Shown here piece by piece: positions 1 to 45,982 of a DNA stretch of 45,982 nucleotides (positions within the stretch are counted from its first letter, which is position 1; every line of letters starts with the position of its first letter). The stretch lies in the UHGV virus genome UHGV-0170246; one strand, given 5' to 3'. Made by a program: the position numbers and the translations under genes. Under the pieces are notes generated by a model. That model did no database searches. It worked only from the letters and a program-made list of their open reading frames with translations, and was not told where the DNA came from. Source of the stretch: a virus.

Positions 1-38
1 TGGTTTTTCTGTAATGCGCCAGAAGCCTTGTTTATCGT

Positions 39-64: not shown

Positions 65-128
65 TTGCCTCTGTGTCGTCTGAACGATATTTTTTCCCGC
101 TTTTAGCAACAATCGTGGTTTAGAAAGT

Positions 129-683
129 ATGCAATATGGTTATGCGAGGGTGTCAACTTTTGACCAGAATTTGGAATTACAACTGGAGGCGCTCAGGAGT
201 TCAGGATGTGACCGGATTTTTGAAGATAAAATATCCGGTGCTAAATCAAAACGACCAGGACTTGATAAGCTACTGAAGGTGTTACGACCGGGCGATACGG
301 TTATTGTCTGGAAGCTGGACCGAATGGGGCGTTCTCTGATTCATCTTGTTGATTTACTTAACCATTTTTTATCAAACGACATTGAGTTTATTTCGATTAC
401 GGAAGGGATAAAAATTAGCACTTCAATTGGCCGCTTTGCCTACACGATGCTGAGTGCAGTCGCAGAGATGGAGCGGGAAAATATGATTGAAAGAACGCGT
501 GCAGGATTGGCGGTGGCAAGGGCTAACGGCAGGATAGGAGGACGCCGCTCAAAGCTGGCACCAGAGCAATGGGAACAGATCGGAAGGCTTATTGCGAATG
601 GTGTTTCACGTAAGCGGATAGCGATTATCTTCGATGTTACCTTATCCACGCTTTACCGCAGGTTTCCGGCTGGGAATCATTGA
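129..683 (+). CDS. Serine recombinase, DNA invertase of the Gin/Cin/Pin/Hin family
   Basis: 184 aa; N-terminal YARVST..Q motif with catalytic Ser, GRIGGR and C-terminal HTH; close to phage Mu Gin from recalled sequence. Confidence 0.9.
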   Translation: MQYGYARVSTFDQNLELQLEALRSSGCDRIFEDKISGAKSKRPGLDKLLKVLRPGDTVIVWKLDRMGRSLIHLVDLLNHFLSNDIEFISITEGIKISTSIGRFAYTMLSAVAEMERENMIERTRAGLAVARANGRIGGRRSKLAPEQWEQIGRLIANGVSRKRIAIIFDVTLSTLYRRFPAGNH

Positions 684-805
684 CTGGAGTTAGGCCAGTA
701 GTATGATGCTCGCAAAACGAGATCCAATTTAGATCCTTTTACTGGTGGATTATCGTTCGATCAGTGAGAGACTTCGTGCATGACCGAAAGTGTTGTGGTA
801 GAGTT

Positions 806-3971: not shown

Positions 3972-3997
3972 AGCCCCTGTTGCAAAGGGGCTTTTTT
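3972..3997 (+). terminator. Rho-independent terminator
   Basis: 7-bp stem AGCCCCT/AGGGGCT with a 7-nt loop followed by TTTTTT. Confidence 0.65.
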
Positions 3998-4003
3998 GTG
4001 CTC

Positions 4004-4119
4004 ATAGAATTATATAATTATATATTTATATAAAAAATGCTTTACAGGTGGGAAAAAATTTCCTAAGGTTATAACCGAAACCGAGCGATACCCGCCCTGG
4101 TTAAACCGGAGATAACCCG
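4004..4119 (+). repeat. Conserved promoter/leader cassette, copy A (AT-rich repeat, TTTACA -35 at 4041-4046, ~70-nt leader, GGAG RBS)
   Basis: Near-identical to 13072-13190 and 20695-20812; ends at the ATG of the downstream gene. Confidence 0.7.
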
Positions 4120-4500
4120 ATGAGCATGATTAAAATCCGCAAAAATGCTTTCCTTAAAATTCAAACTATCCTGGCTGGTTCTGTTGGCGTGATTTGCCGT
4201 TCTTCTTCAAGCCGCATCGATGACGGCTACGATGATGAGTACCGTGTGTCCTCGTGCGATGAGGCTTTAACCTGGCTGAAGGAGAATCAGGAACGTGCCC
4301 AGGTATATCTGGAAACAGAGAACGGCAATCAGATGCTGCGTATTAGCGGTCGTTATGGATTTGAAACTACATTCATGGCCTATTTTAATCAGGCTTACTT
4401 TGACAAGGAGCTGGCCTGGTACACTGATCGCATGAGCAAAAGCGAGCCAGCCCCGATTACACCGCCGAACAATAAACCATTTTTATTCCTCGTTAAGTAA
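4120..4500 (+). CDS. Hypothetical protein, first gene after cassette A
   Basis: 126-aa ORF with GGAG RBS inside the conserved leader. Confidence 0.5.
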   Translation: MSMIKIRKNAFLKIQTILAGSVGVICRSSSSRIDDGYDDEYRVSSCDEALTWLKENQERAQVYLETENGNQMLRISGRYGFETTFMAYFNQAYFDKELAWYTDRMSKSEPAPITPPNNKPFLFLVK

Positions 4501-4506
4501 ACACAA

Positions 4507-4533
4507 TGCGCAAAGTGTCATTTTGACACTTTG
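4507..4533. promoter_or_regulatory. Perfect 27-bp palindrome CGCAAAGTGTCA-TTT-TGACACTTTGCG
   Basis: Read directly; upstream of the HTH gene at 4564; a partial copy (AAAGTGTCATTTTGA) is at 13021-13035. Confidence 0.45.
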
Positions 4534-4563
4534 CGAGTGTTAATATTGTGCGAGGAGGATGCT

Positions 4564-4836
4564 ATGACGGGTTATGAATTGAAATTATGGCGTCGTGGGA
4601 TGAACTGGACGCAGGAGCGAGCCGCCGAAGAATTTGGGATATCGTTGGCTACATATAAGCGATATGAGAAGGGGGAGCCGCCGAGGGTCATTGAGATGGC
4701 CATTCGCGTTCTGTCGTTTGACGATATGGTTAAGGATCTTTCACACCTTGATAAAGATGCGATTCTGTTAAGGCTGCAAACCCTTGTATGGGAAAAGGTT
4801 AAAGTGTCGTCAGAATTGGAACAAGGGATCAAATGA
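4564..4836 (+). CDS. HTH XRE-family transcriptional regulator
   Basis: Internal ATG of ORF 4531-4836 preceded by GAGGAGG; HTH segment WTQERAAEEFGISLATYKRYE. Confidence 0.5.
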   Translation: MTGYELKLWRRGMNWTQERAAEEFGISLATYKRYEKGEPPRVIEMAIRVLSFDDMVKDLSHLDKDAILLRLQTLVWEKVKVSSELEQGIK

Positions 4837-4884
4837 TCCTTTACGGATCGTTTTATGGTGGTGTAATGTAAGCGCCAGAAAGAC

Positions 4885-4910
4885 AAAAACCGCCTTGCCG
4901 GGCGGTTTTC
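4885..4910 (+). terminator. Possible rho-independent terminator
   Basis: Hairpin CCGCC-ttgccg-GGCGG extended by A-T pairs, then TTTT. Confidence 0.35.
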
Positions 4911-5607
4911 AGTCTGAAATTTAAATCTTGCTTGGTAGGCTGGATTTAAAAAGACACCTCTTGATTGGGGCGGCTTTCTTGCGTCTAAAGATAATCAAAT
5001 CTTTTTGCGCCTGCAACCCCTTTTTTACTGGTGCCTGTTTCAGACTCACGCTCGCGTCGTTGTCTTTGCCACTTCGTTGGGTTCGGTGTTTTTGGGCGGA
5101 GTGGCGCGCGGGTATGCGTACAAGGGGAAAGTGTGCTGACGCAAGCTAGGAACAGCGATCTAAACTAAGTCGAGTCTGAGAAAGGCAGGAGTGCGACAAC
5201 TCGCCTGTGCTCAATGAGCAGAAGAAGGTATATCAGACGACCAATGGCATGATTGTGGGCCACAGGGCGCACACGGCGGCGAAGCATTGGAAACGATGTG
5301 GAGCTATCTGGTGGCATGAGTTCCGGTACTCGATCTCGAGCTTTTTTTGATGCTTTTGAGAAGGGGCCGGAACTCCGGTAAAGGGCACCCTGTATGGGGG
5401 GAGGGGGGGTTGTGTCTGAAGGGTGGCTATCGGTTATGGTGGAATTATGATGCGTAGAAAAGCGAGTTTGCTGCAAGCTATTGGGTCCATTATTTCTTTG
5501 TTTCCGGCAGTTGATCATTTTCGTCATATGGCGACACGTTCGAGTATGGGCTTGGCGCGTGACGCTGACGCTATTCGAAAGGATTTTCAGAAAGTCTCTG
5601 GTGTTGA

Positions 5608-5641
5608 TAAGAGAGAAAAGAGTAAGGGGCCGTAGCCCCTT
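5608..5641 (-). terminator. Rho-independent terminator for the antirepressor gene
   Basis: Hairpin AGGGGC-cgta-GCCCCT just downstream of the stop at 5646; minus strand has a U-rich run after the hairpin. Confidence 0.5.
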
Positions 5642-5645
5642 GTAG

Positions 5646-6791
5646 TTATGGTCTGCTTTTCTGTGCCAGCTTATCAGCACATGTTTTTATCAGATCCTGT
5701 AGTGTCCTGGCTGGCAGGTTTGCATCCAGTACGCTGAGTATGCTGTTGTGTTCTGCTTGGTCGACTACTTTGCCTGTCGGTGGTAGTAGCTTGAGCTGAG
5801 GATTCAGGTTTTCGTCAAAGCTGATAAGTGCTCTGGCGTTTCTGAGCAGATCAAGAAGTAAGGCTGATATCACATTTTCCTGAGTCATTGCTGGCAGACT
5901 TAGCGCCGCTTTGGTTTTCCCTGTTGCCTTGTCAAACTCCTTGATTAGTTCCTTCCTGTAGTTCGGTTCCGTTAATAGCCGATTATGCTCTGTTGCCGCG
6001 CGGATAATCGTTTTTTCCTGGTATAGTCGTTTAGCCAGATCACGCTCGTACTGTGTTTTTAACACGCTGCTGATAGCGTTAAAGGCTTCAATGTAGGCCA
6101 GCTTGATATCTTTCACGCTTGGACCGTCGATGCTCTCCATGAGCAAGGTAAATCCGTCTTTTGTCATGCGATAGATTGTTATTTCGCGGTCGCTTCCTTC
6201 CAGCGGTCGTTGCTCTTTAAAGAAGTGACGCGCCGCAGCTGTGCGAGGAATGCGTAACGCATCGATGGCCATAACGATGGAATTGTTTGTGGTGCTGAAT
6301 GCCTGGGCAACATCGGCTGAGGTTGTGAGTGGCTCGTTGTTGCACACCTTAATGTAATACATTGGTTTAGCGTTGAGCGTATCGACAACCTCACGAGCAT
6401 TGTTTGGTGAGACGGTTACGGTCGCGGCCGTTTGCGCGTTCTGGTTGAAGTAGCAGTCTTCCAGCCGTTCGAATACATCCCACGCCTGATCGGTTTCGAG
6501 CATTTTAGCGTGACGTGCAGCCCCGCGTTCTGTCCAGAGGATGAGGGAGCGGACTTTAGGTGAAACTGGATTTTGAGAGTAGTTTAAAGCTACCCGCAAT
6601 TCTTTAAGGTCATTACCAACAACTTTGAAAAAGTGTTTCCCTTCAACGAAACGTGCTTTGTTCTCATGATGATTCTGGCGAATACGCACCGGCTCAGTGC
6701 CGTAAAGCTGTGCTAGTAACTCGGTAGTAATGACAGGGATTTGGTTATGCAGGATAGGCTGTAGGGTGTTAACGGTCGGAAGCGTTTTCAT
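5646..6791 (-). CDS. Antirepressor-like protein (ORF6N-type N-terminus, Rha-like central region)
   Basis: 381 aa; N-terminal pattern PVITTELLAQLYGTEPVRIRQNHHENKARFVEGKHFFK and internal TTSADVAQAF segment typical of phage Ant/Rha-type regulators (recalled domain patterns). Confidence 0.55.
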   Translation of the reverse strand: MKTLPTVNTLQPILHNQIPVITTELLAQLYGTEPVRIRQNHHENKARFVEGKHFFKVVGNDLKELRVALNYSQNPVSPKVRSLILWTERGAARHAKMLETDQAWDVFERLEDCYFNQNAQTAATVTVSPNNAREVVDTLNAKPMYYIKVCNNEPLTTSADVAQAFSTTNNSIVMAIDALRIPRTAAARHFFKEQRPLEGSDREITIYRMTKDGFTLLMESIDGPSVKDIKLAYIEAFNAISSVLKTQYERDLAKRLYQEKTIIRAATEHNRLLTEPNYRKELIKEFDKATGKTKAALSLPAMTQENVISALLLDLLRNARALISFDENLNPQLKLLPPTGKVVDQAEHNSILSVLDANLPARTLQDLIKTCADKLAQKSRP

Positions 6792-6979
6792 TTTGCACCT
6801 CCCATAACTACTTTGGTTACGAGGGAGATTTTTGCGTCAGAAACAGCGTTATCGTTGCTGGCGATGCGCATAGCTTCGCGCTCGATGATTTCAGCCAGGC
6901 GGAATTTATCGGCGTATGAGGCTTTCTTGAGAAGGATCTTTACGAGGTTGACGTAATAGTCATGGGGTAAGTTTGTCAT
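6788..6979 (-). CDS. Small hypothetical protein, first gene of the antirepressor operon
   Basis: 63-aa ORF; its stop overlaps the antirepressor start (ATGA). Confidence 0.35.
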   Translation of the reverse strand: MTNLPHDYYVNLVKILLKKASYADKFRLAEIIEREAMRIASNDNAVSDAKISLVTKVVMGGAK

Positions 6980-7394
6980 GGTGATAGTTCCCTTAAAGGT
7001 TAAGGATACTCACCACCGTCTGGTTCCAATCATTGGGTGGTGAGACGTACAGGGTTGGAACTACCGGTCACCATGGAATCCGGCGAGTCTTACGACTCCC
7101 CCGCACGCCCCACCATAATTTGGGTGTAGCAGTGCTTTACGCATAAAAAAACCGCTAACGCGGTATGCGCCATGATGATTATCGGGGTTCCAATCCCGAC
7201 CGTAGATTTTGCTACGGCTCGGAAAGTGTCCACCAATGGCGCATTTATGTCAATACAGAGGGATTTTAACAGAGACAACCACATAGCGTGGGTTTATTGG
7301 TAGGCAGAAACAAAAAAACCGCCCTATTGAGGACGGTTCTTTCGTGCTGATCGGATTCGCGGTCCTTTCAGCATAACGTCGTTGTACTAATACA

Positions 7395-7414
7395 ACCACG
7401 CAAGCACAAACAGC
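7395..7414. repeat. Direct repeat copy 1 (ACCACGCAAGCACAAACAGC)
   Basis: 19/20 identical to 7645-7664, about 250 bp downstream, in an ORF-poor region. Confidence 0.6.
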
Positions 7415-7644
7415 AACTACATTCTTACCCAACTGAGGTGAATAGTCCACTATTCATATAAAAAAATTTAGCTCATTAGCTCATGCAAAATGAAGGTTTT
7501 TAACTTATTTACGTGTAATCTCATGTAATAAAAGCGTTTTTTATTCCTTCATTATGAAGGGTATGACGTGTAATATGGCTTGGGGCCTTTCCGCCGATTC
7601 GCACCCGGGCACTGACTTTCAGGAAAGGATTATCCACTTGCCGT

Positions 7645-7664
7645 ACCACGCAGGCACAAACAGC
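7645..7664. repeat. Direct repeat copy 2 (ACCACGCAGGCACAAACAGC)
   Basis: See copy 1. Confidence 0.6.
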
Positions 7665-7728
7665 GTGCTTGCTCTCGCGTCATTTTCGTCGGTGGGGATG
7701 CCGTGAAACGGCCTGTAAGGGCCACACA

Positions 7729-7851
7729 ATGAAAAAATACTACATGTGTATTTTTATCGTTGTTACTGGAGCTTTGTTTACGCCACATGGGGAGGGTTGG
7801 AAGATTACTGATAACGCTCTGAATGTGACGATAAACATTAGCAGCAAGTAG
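7729..7851 (+). CDS. Possible small hydrophobic peptide (40 aa)
   Basis: In-frame ATG of ORF 7669-7851; one predicted transmembrane stretch (YYMCIFIVVTGALF); followed at once by a strong terminator; no recognisable family. Confidence 0.2.
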   Translation: MKKYYMCIFIVVTGALFTPHGEGWKITDNALNVTINISSK

Positions 7852-7856
7852 CGATT

Positions 7857-7880
7857 AGGCCCCTTCGGGGGCCTTTTTTA
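7857..7880 (+). terminator. Rho-independent terminator
   Basis: 7-bp stem AGGCCCC/GGGGCCT with TTCG tetraloop followed by TTTTTT. Confidence 0.75.
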
Positions 7881-8276: not shown

Positions 8277-8525
8277 TTACTTCTGGTTGTATTGAGCCTT
8301 GAGTAACTCAAAAGATTTTGTCAGCACTTCTTTCAATGACATATCCATTGAACTGGCGAACGTTTTGTACTCGCGTTTAAATTCAGGGTCGACGTTAAAC
8401 GCCATTTGTGCCCCACCTGATTTGGTTCTGGTTGGCGTTTCAGTCGGGTCGAAAACCTGCGGTTGTTCGATCGATGGCGGTACGCCTTTGCTGTTCTTCT
8501 TTGGTGGTTTTGATGGTGCGGCCAT
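8277..8525 (-). CDS. ParG-like ribbon-helix-helix centromere-binding protein
   Basis: 82 aa, immediately downstream of parA; unstructured basic N-terminal tail and C-terminal RHH-like segment (FNVDPEFKREYKTFASSMDMSLKEVL). Confidence 0.6.
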   Translation of the reverse strand: MAAPSKPPKKNSKGVPPSIEQPQVFDPTETPTRTKSGGAQMAFNVDPEFKREYKTFASSMDMSLKEVLTKSFELLKAQYNQK

Positions 8526-8537
8526 GTGTATCCCCTC

Positions 8538-8570
8538 TTATATAAATCTATAAAACTATAATTATATATT
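8538..8570. repeat. AT-rich motif locus (TATAAATCTATAAAACTATAATTATATATT) downstream of parG
   Basis: Member of the dispersed TATAATTATATA(AAT) motif family. Confidence 0.55.
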
Positions 8571-9237: not shown

Positions 9238-9246
9238 GTGTTTGGT

Positions 9247-9350
9247 TATATAATTCTATAAATCTATATTTATAGAACGAGGTAAGCATAACCAACTTTT
9301 TGGCGGATGGAAAGTGTTTTATATAATTATATAAATCTATAATCATATAA
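9247..9350. repeat. Two AT-rich motif blocks upstream of parA (candidate par promoter/centromere)
   Basis: TATATAATTCTATAAATCTATATTTATAGA and TTATATAATTATATAAATCTATAATCATATAA read directly. Confidence 0.55.
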
Positions 9351-9372
9351 GCGGGCGTTAGCCCGCTTGCAG

Positions 9373-10532: not shown

Positions 10533-10652
10533 TACCACATTTAGTGGTTTTCACATGGTAAGACGAGAGGTGGACCACAAATAGAAGGTTATTTTTTGTT
10601 TCGCCCATTGAAAAACTCACGATATGTGGTTTTAATACCACATATCGTGGTT
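10533..10652. promoter_or_regulatory. Immunity-region operator cluster: three palindromes of the ACCAC-N5-GTGGT type
   Basis: TACCACATTTAGTGGTT (10533-10549), ACTCACGATATGTGGTT (10615-10631), TACCACATATCGTGGTT (10636-10652) between the divergent repressor and rightward early genes. Confidence 0.65.
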
Positions 10653-10670
10653 TTAACTGGAGTTCGTTAA

Positions 10671-11165
10671 ATGACCTTTCAGGAGTGGGTTGACGAAAAT
10701 GGAGGCCAAATTGGTGTTGCCAGAAAGTTTGGCTTTACGTCATCACTGATTGGTGCCTGGTATCGCTTCGAGAGATTCCCTCGTGCGGATAACCTGACGC
10801 TGCTGGTGGCGTATTCGGAAGGCCGGATTAACGTCCAGCAATGGGCGGCAGATTTTGCCGAACGTCAGCGCCAGCGTAGCGATGGCACATCGGTTCGGCA
10901 GAACAAGATCAAAGGGAATCTCCCTGTTAACTGCTTATCAAGGCTGAAAGCGGTTTTCTCTGAGCTGGGGATGCCTGCGGAGCGTTGCAATCTACGCGGT
11001 CCGCGATTCATTGCTCGCTGGAAACACTCACACGTAACCGTTTCAGAGGTTCGTGATGCGATTACCGTGCTGGAGCTTAAGAATAAAGATTCCAGCGATA
11101 TCGAGCTGATTCATAAGGAGATTAGCAACGCCCGGCGTTCAGCACTTGGGAGGCTTGAGGAATGA
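10671..11165 (+). CDS. Putative HTH regulator, first gene of the rightward early operon (Cro/CII position)
   Basis: 164 aa; divergent from the repressor across the operator cluster; function is by position only. Confidence 0.35.
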   Translation: MTFQEWVDENGGQIGVARKFGFTSSLIGAWYRFERFPRADNLTLLVAYSEGRINVQQWAADFAERQRQRSDGTSVRQNKIKGNLPVNCLSRLKAVFSELGMPAERCNLRGPRFIARWKHSHVTVSEVRDAITVLELKNKDSSDIELIHKEISNARRSALGRLEE

Positions 11166-13021: not shown

Positions 13022-13071
13022 AAGTGTCATTTTGAGCTGTTTTGATGGTGTGTAGACATCGGGAACATCGA

Positions 13072-13190
13072 AAATCTATAAATATATAATTATAGATTTA
13101 TATAAAAAGTGCTTTACAGGTGGGAAAAAATTTCCTAAGGTTATACCCGAAACCGAGCGATACCCGCCCTGGTTAAACCGGAGAAATCTG
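13072..13190 (+). repeat. Conserved promoter/leader cassette, copy B (TTTACA at 13113-13118)
   Basis: Near-identical to cassettes A and C; ends at ATG 13191. Confidence 0.7.
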
Positions 13191-14288: not shown

Positions 14289-14320
14289 GTATATAGAATT
14301 ATATATTTATATAAATGTAT
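14289..14320. repeat. AT-rich motif locus (TATATAGAATTATATATTTATATAAATGTATA)
   Basis: Shares the ATAGAATTATATA core with cassettes A and C. Confidence 0.5.
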
Positions 14321-14335
14321 AAGGACGCCTCGACA

Positions 14336-19559: not shown

Positions 19560-19594
19560 TATATATTTCTATAATTATATAAATATATAGTTAC
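19558..19594. repeat. AT-rich motif locus (ATATATTTCTATAATTATATAAATATATAG)
   Basis: Contains the CTATAATTATATAAAT core shared with the par-flanking repeats. Confidence 0.5.
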
Positions 19595-19728
19595 AACATT
19601 CTATGCGCTTTTCTCATGGGCGCACGCATCAACCATGTTTGTCTGATATGCCGCCGCGCCCAAAAATCCTGAATTTATTGGCTGGGATTTTCGTGCGCGG
19701 CGCCACACCAGACAAACAAATCAAATAT

Positions 19729-19804
19729 GGCCCCTTAGCTCAGTGGTTAGAGCAGGCGACTCATAATCGCACGGTCATCGGTTCAAATCCGGTAGGGGCC
19801 ACCA
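19729..19804 (+). tRNA. tRNA with anticodon CAU (Met, or Ile2 if lysidine-modified)
   Basis: Hand-folded cloverleaf: 7-bp acceptor stem GGCCCCT/AGGGGCC, D arm, anticodon loop CTCATAA, T arm GGTTCAAATCC, encoded CCA; strongly resembles E. coli ileX as I recall it. Confidence 0.85.
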
Positions 19805-20111: not shown

Positions 20112-20699
20112 ATGGAGGCAATTGCATTGTTTAATCTGATTTATGCAGATCCCCCCTGGGAATACAAAGACAAGTGTAAGGATGGGAATCGTGGAGCTGG
20201 TTTTAAGTATCCAACGATGAAAGCTGAGGAGATTGCTCGTATTCCTGTCTGGCAGCTTGCTAATCCTGAATCGTGTTTGTTGGCCATGTGGTGGGTTCCG
20301 ACTCAGCCAGAAGAAGCGTTGCTGGTGGTTAAAGCATGGGGATTCAGGCTGATGACCATGAAGGGCTTCACATGGAACAAATGTGGTAGCCGACAACCAG
20401 ATAAGCTGGTGATGGGGATGGGGCATATGACTCGTGCAAACAGTGAAGATTGCTTGTTTGCGGTAAAAGGCAAACTGCCGACCCGTCTTGATGCGGGGAT
20501 CATTCAGTCGTTTACATCGCCTCGTCTGGAGCATTCTCGGAAGCCTGATGTGGTCCGTGACAAGCTGGTAAAGCTGTTAGGTGATGTTCCTCGTATTGAG
20601 CTGTTTGCTCGCGGTGATTTACCTGATGGCTGGCATGGCTGGGGCAACCAGTGCAATGGAGGTATCCAGTTGCATGATGCTCTCTGGCAAGTGGCATAG
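20112..20699 (+). CDS. MT-A70 family N6-adenine DNA methyltransferase
   Basis: 195 aa; DPPW catalytic motif (YADPPWEY) near the N-terminus. Confidence 0.8.
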   Translation: MEAIALFNLIYADPPWEYKDKCKDGNRGAGFKYPTMKAEEIARIPVWQLANPESCLLAMWWVPTQPEEALLVVKAWGFRLMTMKGFTWNKCGSRQPDKLVMGMGHMTRANSEDCLFAVKGKLPTRLDAGIIQSFTSPRLEHSRKPDVVRDKLVKLLGDVPRIELFARGDLPDGWHGWGNQCNGGIQLHDALWQVA

Positions 20700-20812
20700 A
20701 ATTATATAATTATAGATTTATATAAAAAGTGCTTTACAGGTGGGAAAAAAATTTCCTAAGGTTATACCCGAAACCGAGCGATACCCGCCCTGGTTAAACC
20801 GGAGATAACCCG
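20695..20812 (+). repeat. Conserved promoter/leader cassette, copy C (TTTACA at 20733-20738)
   Basis: Near-identical to cassettes A and B; ends at ATG 20813. Confidence 0.7.
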
Positions 20813-42528: not shown

Positions 42529-42845
42529 ATAATACGTTTACCATATCATCACCTTCTTACTCGATTGATTGGTCACCCAAAACAGTTGTAGAAGAAGTTT
42601 TGCAAAATGTCTCTACTATTATTAATACTCAGATTGGCACTGTACCATATGCCAGAAAATTAGGAGTTAATTCAAGTCTTGTTGATAGCCCTAGCCCAAT
42701 TTTTATTGCTACAGCAACACGAGAAATAATTCAAAAAATTAGTGAGTTTGAGCCTAGAGCGATTATCCATTCTGTTACTTTTGAAAGAACGGACGTTTCT
42801 GATGGTTTTATTAGGCCAAAACTTGTGATAGGAGTTAGAGAATGA
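42525..42845 (+). CDS. Baseplate wedge protein, GPW/gp25-like
   Basis: 106 aa; EEVLQNVSTIINTQIGTVPYARKLG fits the gp25/GPW pattern. Confidence 0.65.
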   Translation: MNNTFTISSPSYSIDWSPKTVVEEVLQNVSTIINTQIGTVPYARKLGVNSSLVDSPSPIFIATATREIIQKISEFEPRAIIHSVTFERTDVSDGFIRPKLVIGVRE

Positions 42846-43966
42846 CGTTGCCGCGCGGTGGTTTGCCAGATATTACTTTCGCAGATTCTAACCCGACTGA
42901 TATAACAACTCGTTCAATCAGGGCTTTTGAGAGTATAACAGGTGAAACATTAGCACCTGCTGATCCACGTAGATTATTCATCTTGTCATTGTGTGAGATT
43001 ATTATACAGCAAAGAAAAGCTATCGATTTTTCTGCAAAACAAAACCTTCTTACATATGGTGGGGGTGAATATCTCGACCATATAGGCTATCTGACGGATA
43101 CGCCTAGGCTGGAAGCTCAATCTGCCTTGACTACATTTGAGTTTAATCTGTCAACAAAATTATCGGGGATATATACAATACCTGCTGGCACTCAAATTTC
43201 AACTGGAAATAGTGTTATTTTCCAAACAGATGTTTTGTTGGAAATACCAGCTGGGAAAACAGTTGGTACAGTCTCAGGATATGCTGTTATACCTGGCTTA
43301 TCGGGGAATGGATTTTTACCTGGGCAAATAAACGAGTTGGTGACTCCGTTGCCGTATGTTTCCAGCGTAAGGAATCTAACAACATCTAATTCTGGTGCTG
43401 ATACAGAGTCAGATGATAATTATGCTGAAAGAATAAAACTGTCGCCGGAAAAACTGTCTACAGCAGGGCCGGAGGATTCTTATAAATATTGGACAAGAAC
43501 AGCCAATCAGAATATAAAAGATGTGAATGTATATACACCATCGCCCGGAACTGTAGAAATCCGTTCTTTGTTAGAGAACGGGGATATACCTTCTGATGAA
43601 CTATTAGAGCAGATAAATAGCGTTCTCTCTGCAACTAATATTCGACCATTCACAGATAAAGTTCTTGTTAAGAAACCAGAGAGCATTGAATACGATATAA
43701 TAATTAAATACTGGATTAACTCATCGGACAAAAACAGAACAACGTTAATTCAAAGTGAGGTTGAGAAAGCTCTTGATGAGTATAAACAATGGCAACGTTC
43801 GGTTATGGGAAGAGATATAAATCCAGATGAAATTATTCAACGTTTAAAAAATGCCGGGGCTAAAAGATTAGAAATATCAAGTCCTGTATTTACTGTAGTT
43901 GGAGAGACGCAGGTCGCCAGAGAGAGAAATATAAATTGCCAGTATGCGGGGTTAGAGGATGGCTGA
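42842..43966 (+). CDS. Baseplate protein J-like
   Basis: 374 aa; position and size match P2 gpJ. Confidence 0.7.
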   Translation: MTLPRGGLPDITFADSNPTDITTRSIRAFESITGETLAPADPRRLFILSLCEIIIQQRKAIDFSAKQNLLTYGGGEYLDHIGYLTDTPRLEAQSALTTFEFNLSTKLSGIYTIPAGTQISTGNSVIFQTDVLLEIPAGKTVGTVSGYAVIPGLSGNGFLPGQINELVTPLPYVSSVRNLTTSNSGADTESDDNYAERIKLSPEKLSTAGPEDSYKYWTRTANQNIKDVNVYTPSPGTVEIRSLLENGDIPSDELLEQINSVLSATNIRPFTDKVLVKKPESIEYDIIIKYWINSSDKNRTTLIQSEVEKALDEYKQWQRSVMGRDINPDEIIQRLKNAGAKRLEISSPVFTVVGETQVARERNINCQYAGLEDG

Positions 43967-44540
43967 TATCTTTAATGTTAGCTTGTTGGATGTTTTACCT
44001 CCTAACTTAGCTAGAGATCCCAACGTGATAGCTATGTCGAAAGCTATTGATGATGAACTACAAGCAATTAACAATTTAATATATAAGACAGAAATATATA
44101 GCGTTGTTGATAACCTGGACTCAGTTGTTCTCGATCATTTAGCTTGGCAATGGAATGCTGATACATGGAGGGATAGTTGGCCTGTATCGTTAAAGCGTTC
44201 TGTTTTTAAATCAATAATACGAACAAAGCGAATAAAGGGTACAAGGGCAGCGGTTGACGATGTAGTAAATAGCTTGGGTGGAGAGGTAAACATAACAGAA
44301 TGGTTTGAAACATCACCACCTGGCGAACCATATACAGCCTCAATTGTTGCTTCGATTAACTCTTTTGATGGTGCCGTTCCTTCGAAAGAGATGTTGGAAG
44401 ATACGTTAAGAAGTATCAAGAGCGCAAAGTCGGCAAGAACATTATTTACATTTTCGCAAGCAGCCAATGTTTCTGGTGGTGTCGGTATTGTTGGTGCTTG
44501 TCAGCCTGTGTCTTATGTACGATTAATTGGCGAGTGCTAA
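43959..44540 (+). CDS. Tail protein I-like
   Basis: 193 aa; follows the J-like gene with overlap. Confidence 0.65.
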   Translation: MADIFNVSLLDVLPPNLARDPNVIAMSKAIDDELQAINNLIYKTEIYSVVDNLDSVVLDHLAWQWNADTWRDSWPVSLKRSVFKSIIRTKRIKGTRAAVDDVVNSLGGEVNITEWFETSPPGEPYTASIVASINSFDGAVPSKEMLEDTLRSIKSAKSARTLFTFSQAANVSGGVGIVGACQPVSYVRLIGEC

Positions 44541-44570: not shown

Positions 44571-45982
44571 GTGAGTAAATTATTATTTACGATGACTGAC
44601 GCCGGGCGTCAGGAGCTGGTTAATGCCAACAAAACAGGAACAAATAAAGTTGAGATTGTTTCTGTTGGTTTAGGTAGTAGATATTATGTCACGTCAACTT
44701 CACAAACAAATATAACAAACGAAATAAAACGACTTACCACAATAGGTGGCAAAGTTGTTTCCCCTGATACAATTCATGTAACAGCGAAGGATGATAGTAA
44801 AGATGAGTATGTTGTCCATACAATAGGATTGTATACGAATAAGGGTACGTTGTTTGCTGTATACTCACAAGAACAAGCAATAATAAATAAAGCATCATCT
44901 ACTATCGCTTTAATATCAAGTGATATAGCAATTAAAACTCTTGATACTAAAAATATTACATTTGGTGATATTGAGTTTATTAATCCTCCCGCGACCGAAA
45001 CTGTTGTTGGGGTGGCAAGATTTGCTAATGAACAAGAAATTGATGCAGGTACAGATGATTCCCTTGCTGTTTCAGCAAAACGGCTTAAGCAAGCCATTGT
45101 GAAACATGAGCAATCACGTAATCATCCTGATGCAACTTTAACCTCAAAAGGCTTTGTTCAACTTAGCAGCGCCACCAATAGCGCGTCTGAAACGCTTGCT
45201 GCGACGCCTAAGGCTGTTAAGGCAGCATATGACCTGGCTAATGCTAAATACACCGCACAGGACGCTACCACAGCGCGAAAAGGGATTGTTCAGCTCAGTA
45301 GTGCCACCAACAGCACGTCTGAAACGCTGGCAGCAACACCAAAGGCTGTTAAGGCAGCGTATGATCTTGCGGCCGGAAAGGCTCCGTCCAATCACACGCA
45401 TTCGTGGGAGCAGATAACAAATGTGCCTGTAGCTTCACTGACTGTAAGGGGAATAACTCAGCTCAGTAGTGCCACCAACAGCACGTCTGAAACACTGGCC
45501 GCGACATCGAAAGCTGTAAAGGTGGTAATGGATGAAACGAACAAGAAAGCGCCCCTGAACAGTCCGGCGCTGACCGGAACACCAACAACACCAACTGCGC
45601 CAAAAGGTACTAACAATACTCAGATCGCAAGCACGGCTTATGTTATGGCTGCGATTGCCGCCCTTGTAGATTCGTCACCTGACGCACTGAATACGCTGAA
45701 CGAGTTAGCGGCGGCGCTGGGAAACGACCCGAATTTTGCGACCACCATGACTAACGCGCTTGCGGGTAAGCAACCGAAAGATGCCACCCTGACGGCGCTG
45801 GCCGGGCTTGCTACTGCGGCAGACAGGTTTCCGTATTTTACGGGGAATGATGTCGCCAGCCTGGCAACTCTGACAAAAGTCGGGCGGGATATTCTTGCGA
45901 AATCGACCGTTGCCGCCGTTATCGAATACCTCGGTTTGCAGGAAACGATAAACAAGGCTTCTGGCGCATTACAGAAAAACCA
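44571..45982 (+). CDS. Tail fibre protein (P2 gpH / Mu S-like constant part), 3'-truncated by the window edge
   Basis: GTG start; open frame to the window end, absent from the ORF track because there is no stop; three tandem fibre repeats; reading frame runs through the gix-like site at 45919-45944. Confidence 0.8.
   Translation, partial: MSKLLFTMTDAGRQELVNANKTGTNKVEIVSVGLGSRYYVTSTSQTNITNEIKRLTTIGGKVVSPDTIHVTAKDDSKDEYVVHTIGLYTNKGTLFAVYSQEQAIINKASSTIALISSDIAIKTLDTKNITFGDIEFINPPATETVVGVARFANEQEIDAGTDDSLAVSAKRLKQAIVKHEQSRNHPDATLTSKGFVQLSSATNSASETLAATPKAVKAAYDLANAKYTAQDATTARKGIVQLSSATNSTSETLAATPKAVKAAYDLAAGKAPSNHTHSWEQITNVPVASLTVRGITQLSSATNSTSETLAATSKAVKVVMDETNKKAPLNSPALTGTPTTPTAPKGTNNTQIASTAYVMAAIAALVDSSPDALNTLNELAAALGNDPNFATTMTNALAGKQPKDATLTALAGLATAADRFPYFTGNDVASLATLTKVGRDILAKSTVAAVIEYLGLQETINKASGALQKN
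45150..45535 (+). repeat. Three tandem ~90-bp coding repeats inside the tail fibre gene (GxVQLSSATNSxSETLAATPKAVKAAYDLA)
   Basis: Read directly at ~45150-45242, 45280-45372 and 45446-45535. Confidence 0.8.
45919..45944. other. gix/cix-like crossover site (TTATCGAATACCTCGGTTTGCAGGAA), inverted partner of 39-64
   Basis: About 23/26 identical to the Mu gix site as recalled; lies inside the tail fibre reading frame. Confidence 0.7.

Follow-up and report, generated by a model that had tools for sequence, protein, structure and literature searches.

Background

Programmed inversion of tail-fibre genes has been catalogued as a class (PMC9881135). The described systems that come closest to the locus reported here are the G segment of phage Mu with its invertase Gin, the C segment of phages P1 and P7 with Cin, the corresponding region of the P1-like Salmonella phage SJ46 (invertase 'pin'), and the fibre region of Escherichia phage P88 (Xuanwuvirus, P2-like). 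In Mu, the constant part of the fibre gene (Sc) is followed by a recombination site, the variable part with its companion gene (Sv-U), an inverted second pair (U'-Sv'), a second site and the invertase gene, and the segment between the sites is about 3 kb long. The C segment of P1 is 4.2 kb long and has inverted repeats of 0.6 kb. Of the other members of the recombinase family, Hin flips a promoter and not a coding cassette, and Min has six sites and makes multiple inversions.

Here we analyze a stretch of viral DNA of 45,982 nucleotides (UHGV virus genome UHGV-0170246; hereafter the window), which ends within an open tail-fibre gene. We consider it very probable that the window is a phage-plasmid with an invertible fibre-tip (host-range) switch of the Mu G or P1 C type, the invertible segment of which was lost in the assembly. 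The mechanism is that of the textbook Gin and Cin systems, and no long-standing question is opened by it. What differs is the carrier, a phage-plasmid of about 49 kb with an IncFII-type RepA, and the long, repeat-rich constant part of the fibre. In the literature, we found no description of the 48-kb phage-plasmid family or of its inversion; the topics encountered were P1-like and SSU5-like plasmids and other Yersinia phages.

Results and discussion

Comparison with the described systems

The locus shares with the G segment of Mu the gene order and the segment length given above. Its sites agree with those of Mu at 22 to 23 of 26 bases and have the same GA core, the inner repeat sequence of the family is homologous to the ends of Mu G, and a Fis-like pair of sites lies at the same invertase codons. 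However, the constant part of the fibre is about 450 aa long, compared with about 170 aa in Mu, and has three or four copies of the PF03406 repeat. Mu is a transposable phage, whereas the carrier here is maintained as a plasmid prophage and encodes an IncFII-type RepA; the invertase is 54% identical to Gin, and the outer half-sites differ from those of gix.

P1, P7 and SJ46 are, like the carrier described here, phage-plasmids with the same type of switch at the fibre C-terminus, and the invertase region of SJ46 has 89.7% DNA identity to the invertase and right site of the window. However, their replicon and virion genes are unrelated to those of the window, and they are 94-103 kb in size compared with about 49 kb. 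P88 has the layout fibre-U-U'-Sv'-invertase, and between the repeats and the site, the fibre gene has about 92% DNA identity to that of P2-like phages. In contrast to the window, P88 has an integrative P2-type genome, a different fibre N-terminus and an invertase that is 56% identical (54-57% for Gin and P88). The idea that P2-type H genes share this sequence without having a switch was discarded, as P88, the one match examined, has its own invertase and opposed cassettes. Together with what is established on the DNA invertases, matches in Pfam and PDB place Hin/hix, Pin of e14 and Min of p15B in the same recombinase family with the same site logic. Multiple inversion of the Min type was also considered and rejected, since, unlike Min, each relative of the window has exactly two sites.

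Recombination sites at the window ends

The features of the locus are listed in Table 1. The initial annotation, made from the letters alone, had proposed that the fibre frame passes through a gix-like site and leaves the window, and that an invertible segment supplies the C-terminus. The first of these proposals was borne out in both parts: the fibre frame consists of 470 codons, from the GTG to the last base of the window, with zero stops, and the left site lies in this frame, where it encodes (V)IEYLGLQE. Compared with Mu gixR as read from the Mu record, this site has 3 mismatches in 26 bases (23 identical), and a match was obtained in 0 of 100 shuffled versions of the window. The outer half of the site is the same in 17 of 17 related loci. 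The window ends 38 nt beyond the site.

Table 1. Features of the probable fibre switch and of the repeats elsewhere in the window (positions in the 45,982-nt window)
Feature	Position	Strand	Remarks
Segment end, second inverted-repeat arm	1..38	-	Inverted repeat; the silent fibre cassette (Sv') starts here on the minus strand; a partial inverted fibre gene occupies this place in relatives
Right recombination site, TTCCTGCAAACC-GA-GGTTTTTGCGAA	39..64	+	Core GA at 51-52; 22/26 bases match Mu gixR
DNA invertase, small serine recombinase, 184 aa	129..683	+	Pfam Resolvase and HTH_7; Gin family
Candidate recombinational enhancer	151..213	+	Two Fis-consensus sites (151-165 and 199-213), centres 48 bp apart, at the 5' end of the invertase gene
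AT-rich repeats with core TATAATTATATAAATCTATA	about 3994-4033, 8525-8570, 9246-9277, 9318-9355, 13063-13118, 14291-14322, 19560-19608, 20696-20738	both orientations	
Tail-fibre gene	44571..45982	+	Contains the constant part (Sc) as far as the crossover site, then 38 nt of the variable part; still open where the window stops
Family-specific N-terminal region of the fibre	44571..45140	+	Low GC; presumed baseplate attachment
Fibre repeat 1 (PF03406)	45146..45238	+	93 nt; Pfam and repeat search
Fibre repeat 2 (PF03406)	45278..45370	+	93 nt; 83% identical to repeat 1
Fibre repeat 3 (PF03406)	45446..45538	+	93 nt; 66% identical to repeat 1
Conserved motif ALAGKQPKDATLTALAGLATAADRFPYFTG	45756..45845	+	aa 396-425, last stretch of the constant part
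Left recombination site, gix-like, 26 bp, TTATCGAATACCTCGGTTTGCAGGAA = TTATCGAATACC-TC-GGTTTGCAGGAA	45919..45944	+	Core TC at 45931-45932; lies within the fibre reading frame
Start of the invertible segment (38 nt), one inverted-repeat arm	45945..45982	+	Encodes ...TINKASGALQKN; reverse complement of window 1-38

Positions 1-58 of the window are the reverse complement of positions 45925-45982, perfectly so over 55 nt, and this terminal inverted repeat led to a second site in inverted orientation at the other end of the window. In an alignment, the right site falls on Mu gixR, and both occupy the same place ahead of the invertase gene. The two sites of the window have the same inner half and the same GA core, and no shuffle gave a match. 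The window therefore has two inverted, imperfectly palindromic 26-bp sites with an identical 2-bp core (GA/TC). Taken together, the inverted repeat at the ends, the second site and the invertase indicate that a circular contig was broken within the inverted repeats of an invertible segment of about 3 kb. The perfect 55-nt overlap at both ends would be the expected appearance of an edge in an assembly graph with k=55. An assembly would break in this way at any inverted repeat of k bases or more, with or without flipping of the segment in the sequenced culture, and thus the break itself is no proof of activity.

Invertase and candidate enhancer

The invertase gene starts 65 nt downstream of the right site. 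Its product matches the Pfam families Resolvase (E 3.6e-44) and HTH_7 (E 2.9e-13), and the best solved structure is that of Mu Gin (3uj3, E 1.2e-61, residues 2-181 aligned). It has 99 of 184 residues (54%) identical to Gin and 182 of 184 identical to the invertase of the plasmid of Escherichia coli ATCC 25922. The serine at position 9 is present in the motif RVST (YARVSTFDQ), and the protein accordingly shows the features of the small serine recombinases, namely an N-terminal catalytic domain, a serine at about position 9-10 and a C-terminal helix-turn-helix.

The 5' end of the invertase gene contains the only pair of Fis-consensus sites between the right site and the end of the gene (window 65-700). 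The consensus is degenerate, and 2% of shuffles yield a pair; the pair lies at positions homologous to those of the only such pair in Mu gin. Scanning positions 1-1000 of the window for promoters and terminators gave nothing above chance.

A single site would be insufficient to infer an invertible segment. With the remainder of the system present, namely the second inverted site, the Gin-family invertase, the layout of the relatives and the inversion in ATCC 25922 (both described below), the second proposal of the initial annotation, that an invertible segment supplies the fibre C-terminus, is supported as well.

The constant part of the fibre

An AAGGA sequence is found 7 nt upstream of the GTG of the fibre gene; in some RefSeq relatives, the start is placed at the ATG of codon 8 rather than at the GTG. 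The upstream neighbors encode, according to Pfam, a baseplate J protein (42842-43966) and a P2-I-like protein (43959-44540), and from these the reading frame is recognized as the fibre gene of a contractile-tail phage. The gene is 97-98% identical to genes named 'tail fiber protein' in 48-kb E. coli plasmids and in Yersinia phage vB_YpM_39.

The fibre gene is a compositional mosaic. Its GC content is 36% up to position 45140 and 53% downstream. For the first 190 amino acids, DNA matches were obtained only within this phage-plasmid family, and a DNA similarity of 88-92% to the H genes of P2-like phages begins at about nucleotide 45141, coinciding with the GC boundary. The earlier description of the fibre as H-like is therefore correct from about 45141 onward but does not extend to the family-specific first 190 amino acids, where the Pfam match to the N-terminal fibre family PF12571 (19 bits) is below the cut-off of 23.

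The fibre was also said to have three tandem repeats. The three copies were recovered: PF03406 (Phage_fiber_2) matches three stretches (E 1.3e-58, 194.7 bits, compared with a gathering cut-off of 22), and at the DNA level these are copies of 93 nt. However, they are not strictly head to tail. Their spacing is 132 and 168 nt, with linkers of 13 and 25 aa, and because these linkers are unequal in length, Tandem Repeats Finder reported no array at the three repeats. By eye, a fourth, degenerate copy was recognized at 45006-45098. The conserved region quoted in the same annotation, ALAGKQPKDATLTALAGLATAADRFPYFTG, was located in the last stretch of the constant part and is near-identical in the aligned relatives, with a single R/K difference.

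The number of fibre repeats varies within the phage-plasmid family. The fibre of ATCC 25922 (locus L003, 6022-8409) has one more tight PF03406 copy than the window, as a 32-aa insertion.

The segment in complete relatives

The fibre region is 97-98% identical to that of 48-49-kb E. coli plasmids and of Yersinia phages vB_YpM_39, vB_YpM_41 and vB_YpM_44. In the complete relatives, the order is fibre(Sc+Sv)-U-U'-Sv'-invertase-RepA, in which U and U' are assembly proteins and Sv' is an inverted fibre gene without its 5' part. The fibres of these relatives have about 725-816 aa and continue for about 290-340 codons past the site. A single fixed C-terminus just beyond the window, which would have spoken against a switch, is thus absent from them: the fibre runs on, and a second, silent cassette is present.

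The exact invertase protein of the window was found in 820 blocks of public assemblies. We compared 13 loci in which both sites were readable, ten of them chosen because they encode this exact protein. With sites counted within 3 mismatches of a 17-nt core, exactly two sites bound the segment in all 13 loci. The segment measures 2.9-3.1 kb in twelve of them and 6.7 kb in the remaining one, L011. Two opposed cassettes, each composed of a fibre C-terminus and an assembly protein, are present in all 13, including the ten with the identical invertase. The silent cassettes are in frame from LGLQE for 291-338 aa, with the exception of L011 (109 aa). At 85% identity, the 13 plasmids contain about eight types of cassette, and some plasmids have in the 'on' position a type that other plasmids have in the 'off' position. 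In the family, the segment is about 3 kb and the inverted repeat about 83 nt long; the outer half-sites are constant, and a C/T polymorphism of the inner half is found at either side.

Damaged versions also occur in the family. In L011 (CP098182.1), a Tn3-family transposon with a resolvase and a DDE_Tnp_Tn3 transposase (3983-7580) lies within the segment, which it enlarges to 6.7 kb, and splits the silent cassette, cutting it short. In L009 (UFZC01000005.1, 3560-6346), the expressed fibre gene is present as several short open reading frames, and the 'on' cassette ends after 152 aa; this copy is degraded though its invertase is identical.

Exact scans of viral_contigs and genome_contigs gave no match to the window's exact variant of the repeat (...ACGATAAACAAGG...); the best match among complete E. 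coli genomes is 97.1%. Both repeat arms of the window encode ETINKASGALQKN, and thus both of its cassettes start like the 'ASGALQKN' types of L001-L003 and L015-L017.

The junction of the constant part with a Mu S-like cassette was also seen in a chromosomal prophage (NZ_CP025859.1, 101785-102584; 97.5% identity). Such chromosomal prophage genes are annotated as 'prophage tail fiber N-terminal domain-containing protein'. As the same junction occurs in chromosomal prophages, the cassettes are common to plasmid-borne and integrated phages.

Inversion in E. coli ATCC 25922

A member of the family, 48,488 bp long, is present in E. coli ATCC 25922. The first five assemblies of this strain that we compared had one orientation only. 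The junction that an inversion would create was then built in silico and used as a query; it was found with 100% identity over 800 of 800 nt in CP158444 and CP081011 and with 99.3% identity in CP037450, and it was also present in a second copy within CP032086. Thus, CP009073, CP117232, CP149501 and CP101926 have one orientation, and CP158444, CP037450 and CP081011 have the opposite one. The reading of the segment as inactive, which the one-orientation assemblies had suggested, was dropped when the other orientation was then found in these further assemblies of the strain.

Inversion of CP009073 in silico between the core dinucleotides gave a sequence with 0 mismatches over 10,800 nt to CP158444 and to the second copy in CP032086. 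The C/T base of the inner half-site moves with the segment and the outer halves stay fixed, which places the crossover within the approximately 10-bp sequence AAACC-GA-GGT. This mapping agrees with cleavage by Gin at the central dinucleotide (PMC3575834). One cassette of ATCC 25922 is nearly identical to Mu S' (PDB 8ju3, E 4e-195), and the C-terminal 80 or so amino acids of the other match Mu S (PDB 5yvq, E 1e-20).

The record with the second copy, NZ_CP032086.1 (L007 and L019), describes a 'linear' ATCC 25922 plasmid of 94,204 bp with two 48.5-kb copies, whose segments face opposite ways. The record reflects either a genuine dimer or a mixed population that the assembler joined into one sequence.

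The phage-plasmid carrier

The window encodes an IncFII_repA family protein (855-1847; Pfam) downstream of the invertase and contains tail, baseplate and head genes. Its relatives, at 97-99% identity, are closed circular plasmids of 48-49 kb and isolated phages, so that a single circular, extrachromosomal replicon combines a plasmid replication gene with a complete virion module. This module shares 98.5% identity with that of Yersinia phages vB_YpM_39, vB_YpM_41 and vB_YpM_44, which were isolated on Y. pestis EV76-CN, and the family therefore makes infective particles. The window is a nearly complete circular phage-plasmid of about 49 kb with a myovirus virion module and an IncFII-type RepA.

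Several other features were observed on this replicon. A GC-rich hairpin, AAAAAGCCCGCAGATAAATCTGCGGGCT, is located at positions 873-900, at the start of the listed RepA frame, and the RepA proteins of the relatives are annotated from different starts (278 or 325-326 aa); the hairpin may be a countertranscript or leader structure, like those of IncFII replicons. A tRNA-Met (CAT) gene is present at 19729-19804. Matches at the Rfam gathering level were obtained for C4 antisense RNA (7033-7120, minus strand, 84 bits), isrK (7145-7218, minus strand, 70 bits) and ryfA (7581-7879, plus strand, 135 bits). They adjoin a 381-aa open reading frame (5646-6791, minus strand), for which the relatives have ORF6N and pRha domains of the antirepressor type. 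The arrangement resembles a c4/ant immunity region in the style of P1, here in a phage outside the P1-like group. The AT-rich repeats of 20-45 nt with the core TATAATTATATAAATCTATA (Table 1) are scattered through the non-structural half and are possibly operators or phage-specific promoters. Just upstream of an open reading frame that starts at 10671, a palindrome at 10613-10654 consists of two abutting 21-nt arms, AAACTCACGATATGTGGTTTT and AATACCACATATCGTGGTTTT.

Alternative explanations

The break of the contig would also be expected from the repeat alone, and damaged versions of the locus exist in the family (the transposon in L011 and the truncated 'on' cassette in L009). It could thus be argued that the sites and the invertase persist in the window as a relic, whose segment no longer inverts and whose fibre has in effect one fixed C-terminus. 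However, the invertase frame of the window is intact, including Ser9 and the helix-turn-helix, and differs at only two of 184 residues from that of a plasmid seen in both orientations. Both sites are intact as well, with matching cores and with outer halves identical to those of the active relative, and we regard a loss of inversion as improbable. Still less probable is an origin of the terminal repeat in the assembly, from 55 nt that are common to other prophage fibre genes of the same genome. The end of the constant part and the starts of the cassettes do recur, with 93-98% identity, in the fibre genes of many chromosomal prophages, and the final 103 nt of the window have matches in over 1,000 E. 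coli genomes. However, the inverted repeat ends exactly at a second site upstream of the invertase, as it does in every complete relative, and the window together with a segment of about 3 kb amounts to 48-49 kb, the size of the complete relatives.

It is also conceivable that the inversion is real but serves mainly something other than the host range of the virion, such as a surface or exclusion phenotype of the lysogen. The cryptic-prophage invertase PinQ is reported to block T2 adsorption (PMC12529663). Against such a role, the cassettes here supply the end of the fibre in a virion module that is intact and nearly the same as that of infective phages (98.5% identity), and they are homologous to the receptor-binding fibres S and S' of Mu. 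We accordingly regard this explanation as improbable beside a switch of the fibre tip that acts on host range.

A model of the probable fibre switch

For the preferred reading, a phage-plasmid with a fibre-tip switch, we propose the following model. An invertible segment of about 3 kb would sit between the last and the first base of the window. The fixed part of the fibre would extend from 44571 to the core of the left site at 45931, and the variable part would lie within the segment. As judged from the relatives, the segment would be composed of two facing cassettes, Sv+U and Sv'+U', neither of which has a 5' end of its own. By homology to Gin, the invertase would pair the left and right sites, with Fis probably bound to the enhancer in the 5' coding region of the invertase gene, cut both sites at the identical central GA/TC dinucleotide and rotate the strands by 180 degrees. 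The cassette that abuts the fixed part would then be translated together with it as a single fibre, from the late operon upstream, and the other would be silent. In a population of lysogens, virions with one of two receptor-binding tips would be released, as a form of bet-hedging on host range. Dependence of the inversion on Fis is predicted from the homology to Gin, transcription would come only from outside the segment, and the homology of the relatives' cassettes to Mu S and S' suggests that the two tips may bind different receptors.

A more speculative extension has two parts. As the element is maintained as a plasmid, and as the 94-kb record has two copies in opposite orientations, a single cell might hold both. 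A lysogenic cell with both orientations might produce mixed or dual-fibre virions, unlike the one-orientation bursts of Mu. In addition, the cassettes might belong to a large shared pool (about eight types in 13 plasmids, with exchange among Mu-, P2- and P1-like phages) that crosses the genus boundary between E. coli and Yersinia. We consider this extension rather unlikely.

Significance

The interest of the locus is mainly practical. It illustrates that, where a contig stops inside a fibre gene, the other end of the same contig can be used to complete it. In current annotation, the parts of the switch are labelled only 'tail fiber protein', 'partial' and 'recombinase family protein', so that an active switch of the Mu type lies hidden in a widespread family of phage-plasmids, which includes the plasmid of the reference strain ATCC 25922. 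For host prediction, plasmid typing and fibre engineering, it has to be considered that one of two tips is expressed and that a flip can exchange them.
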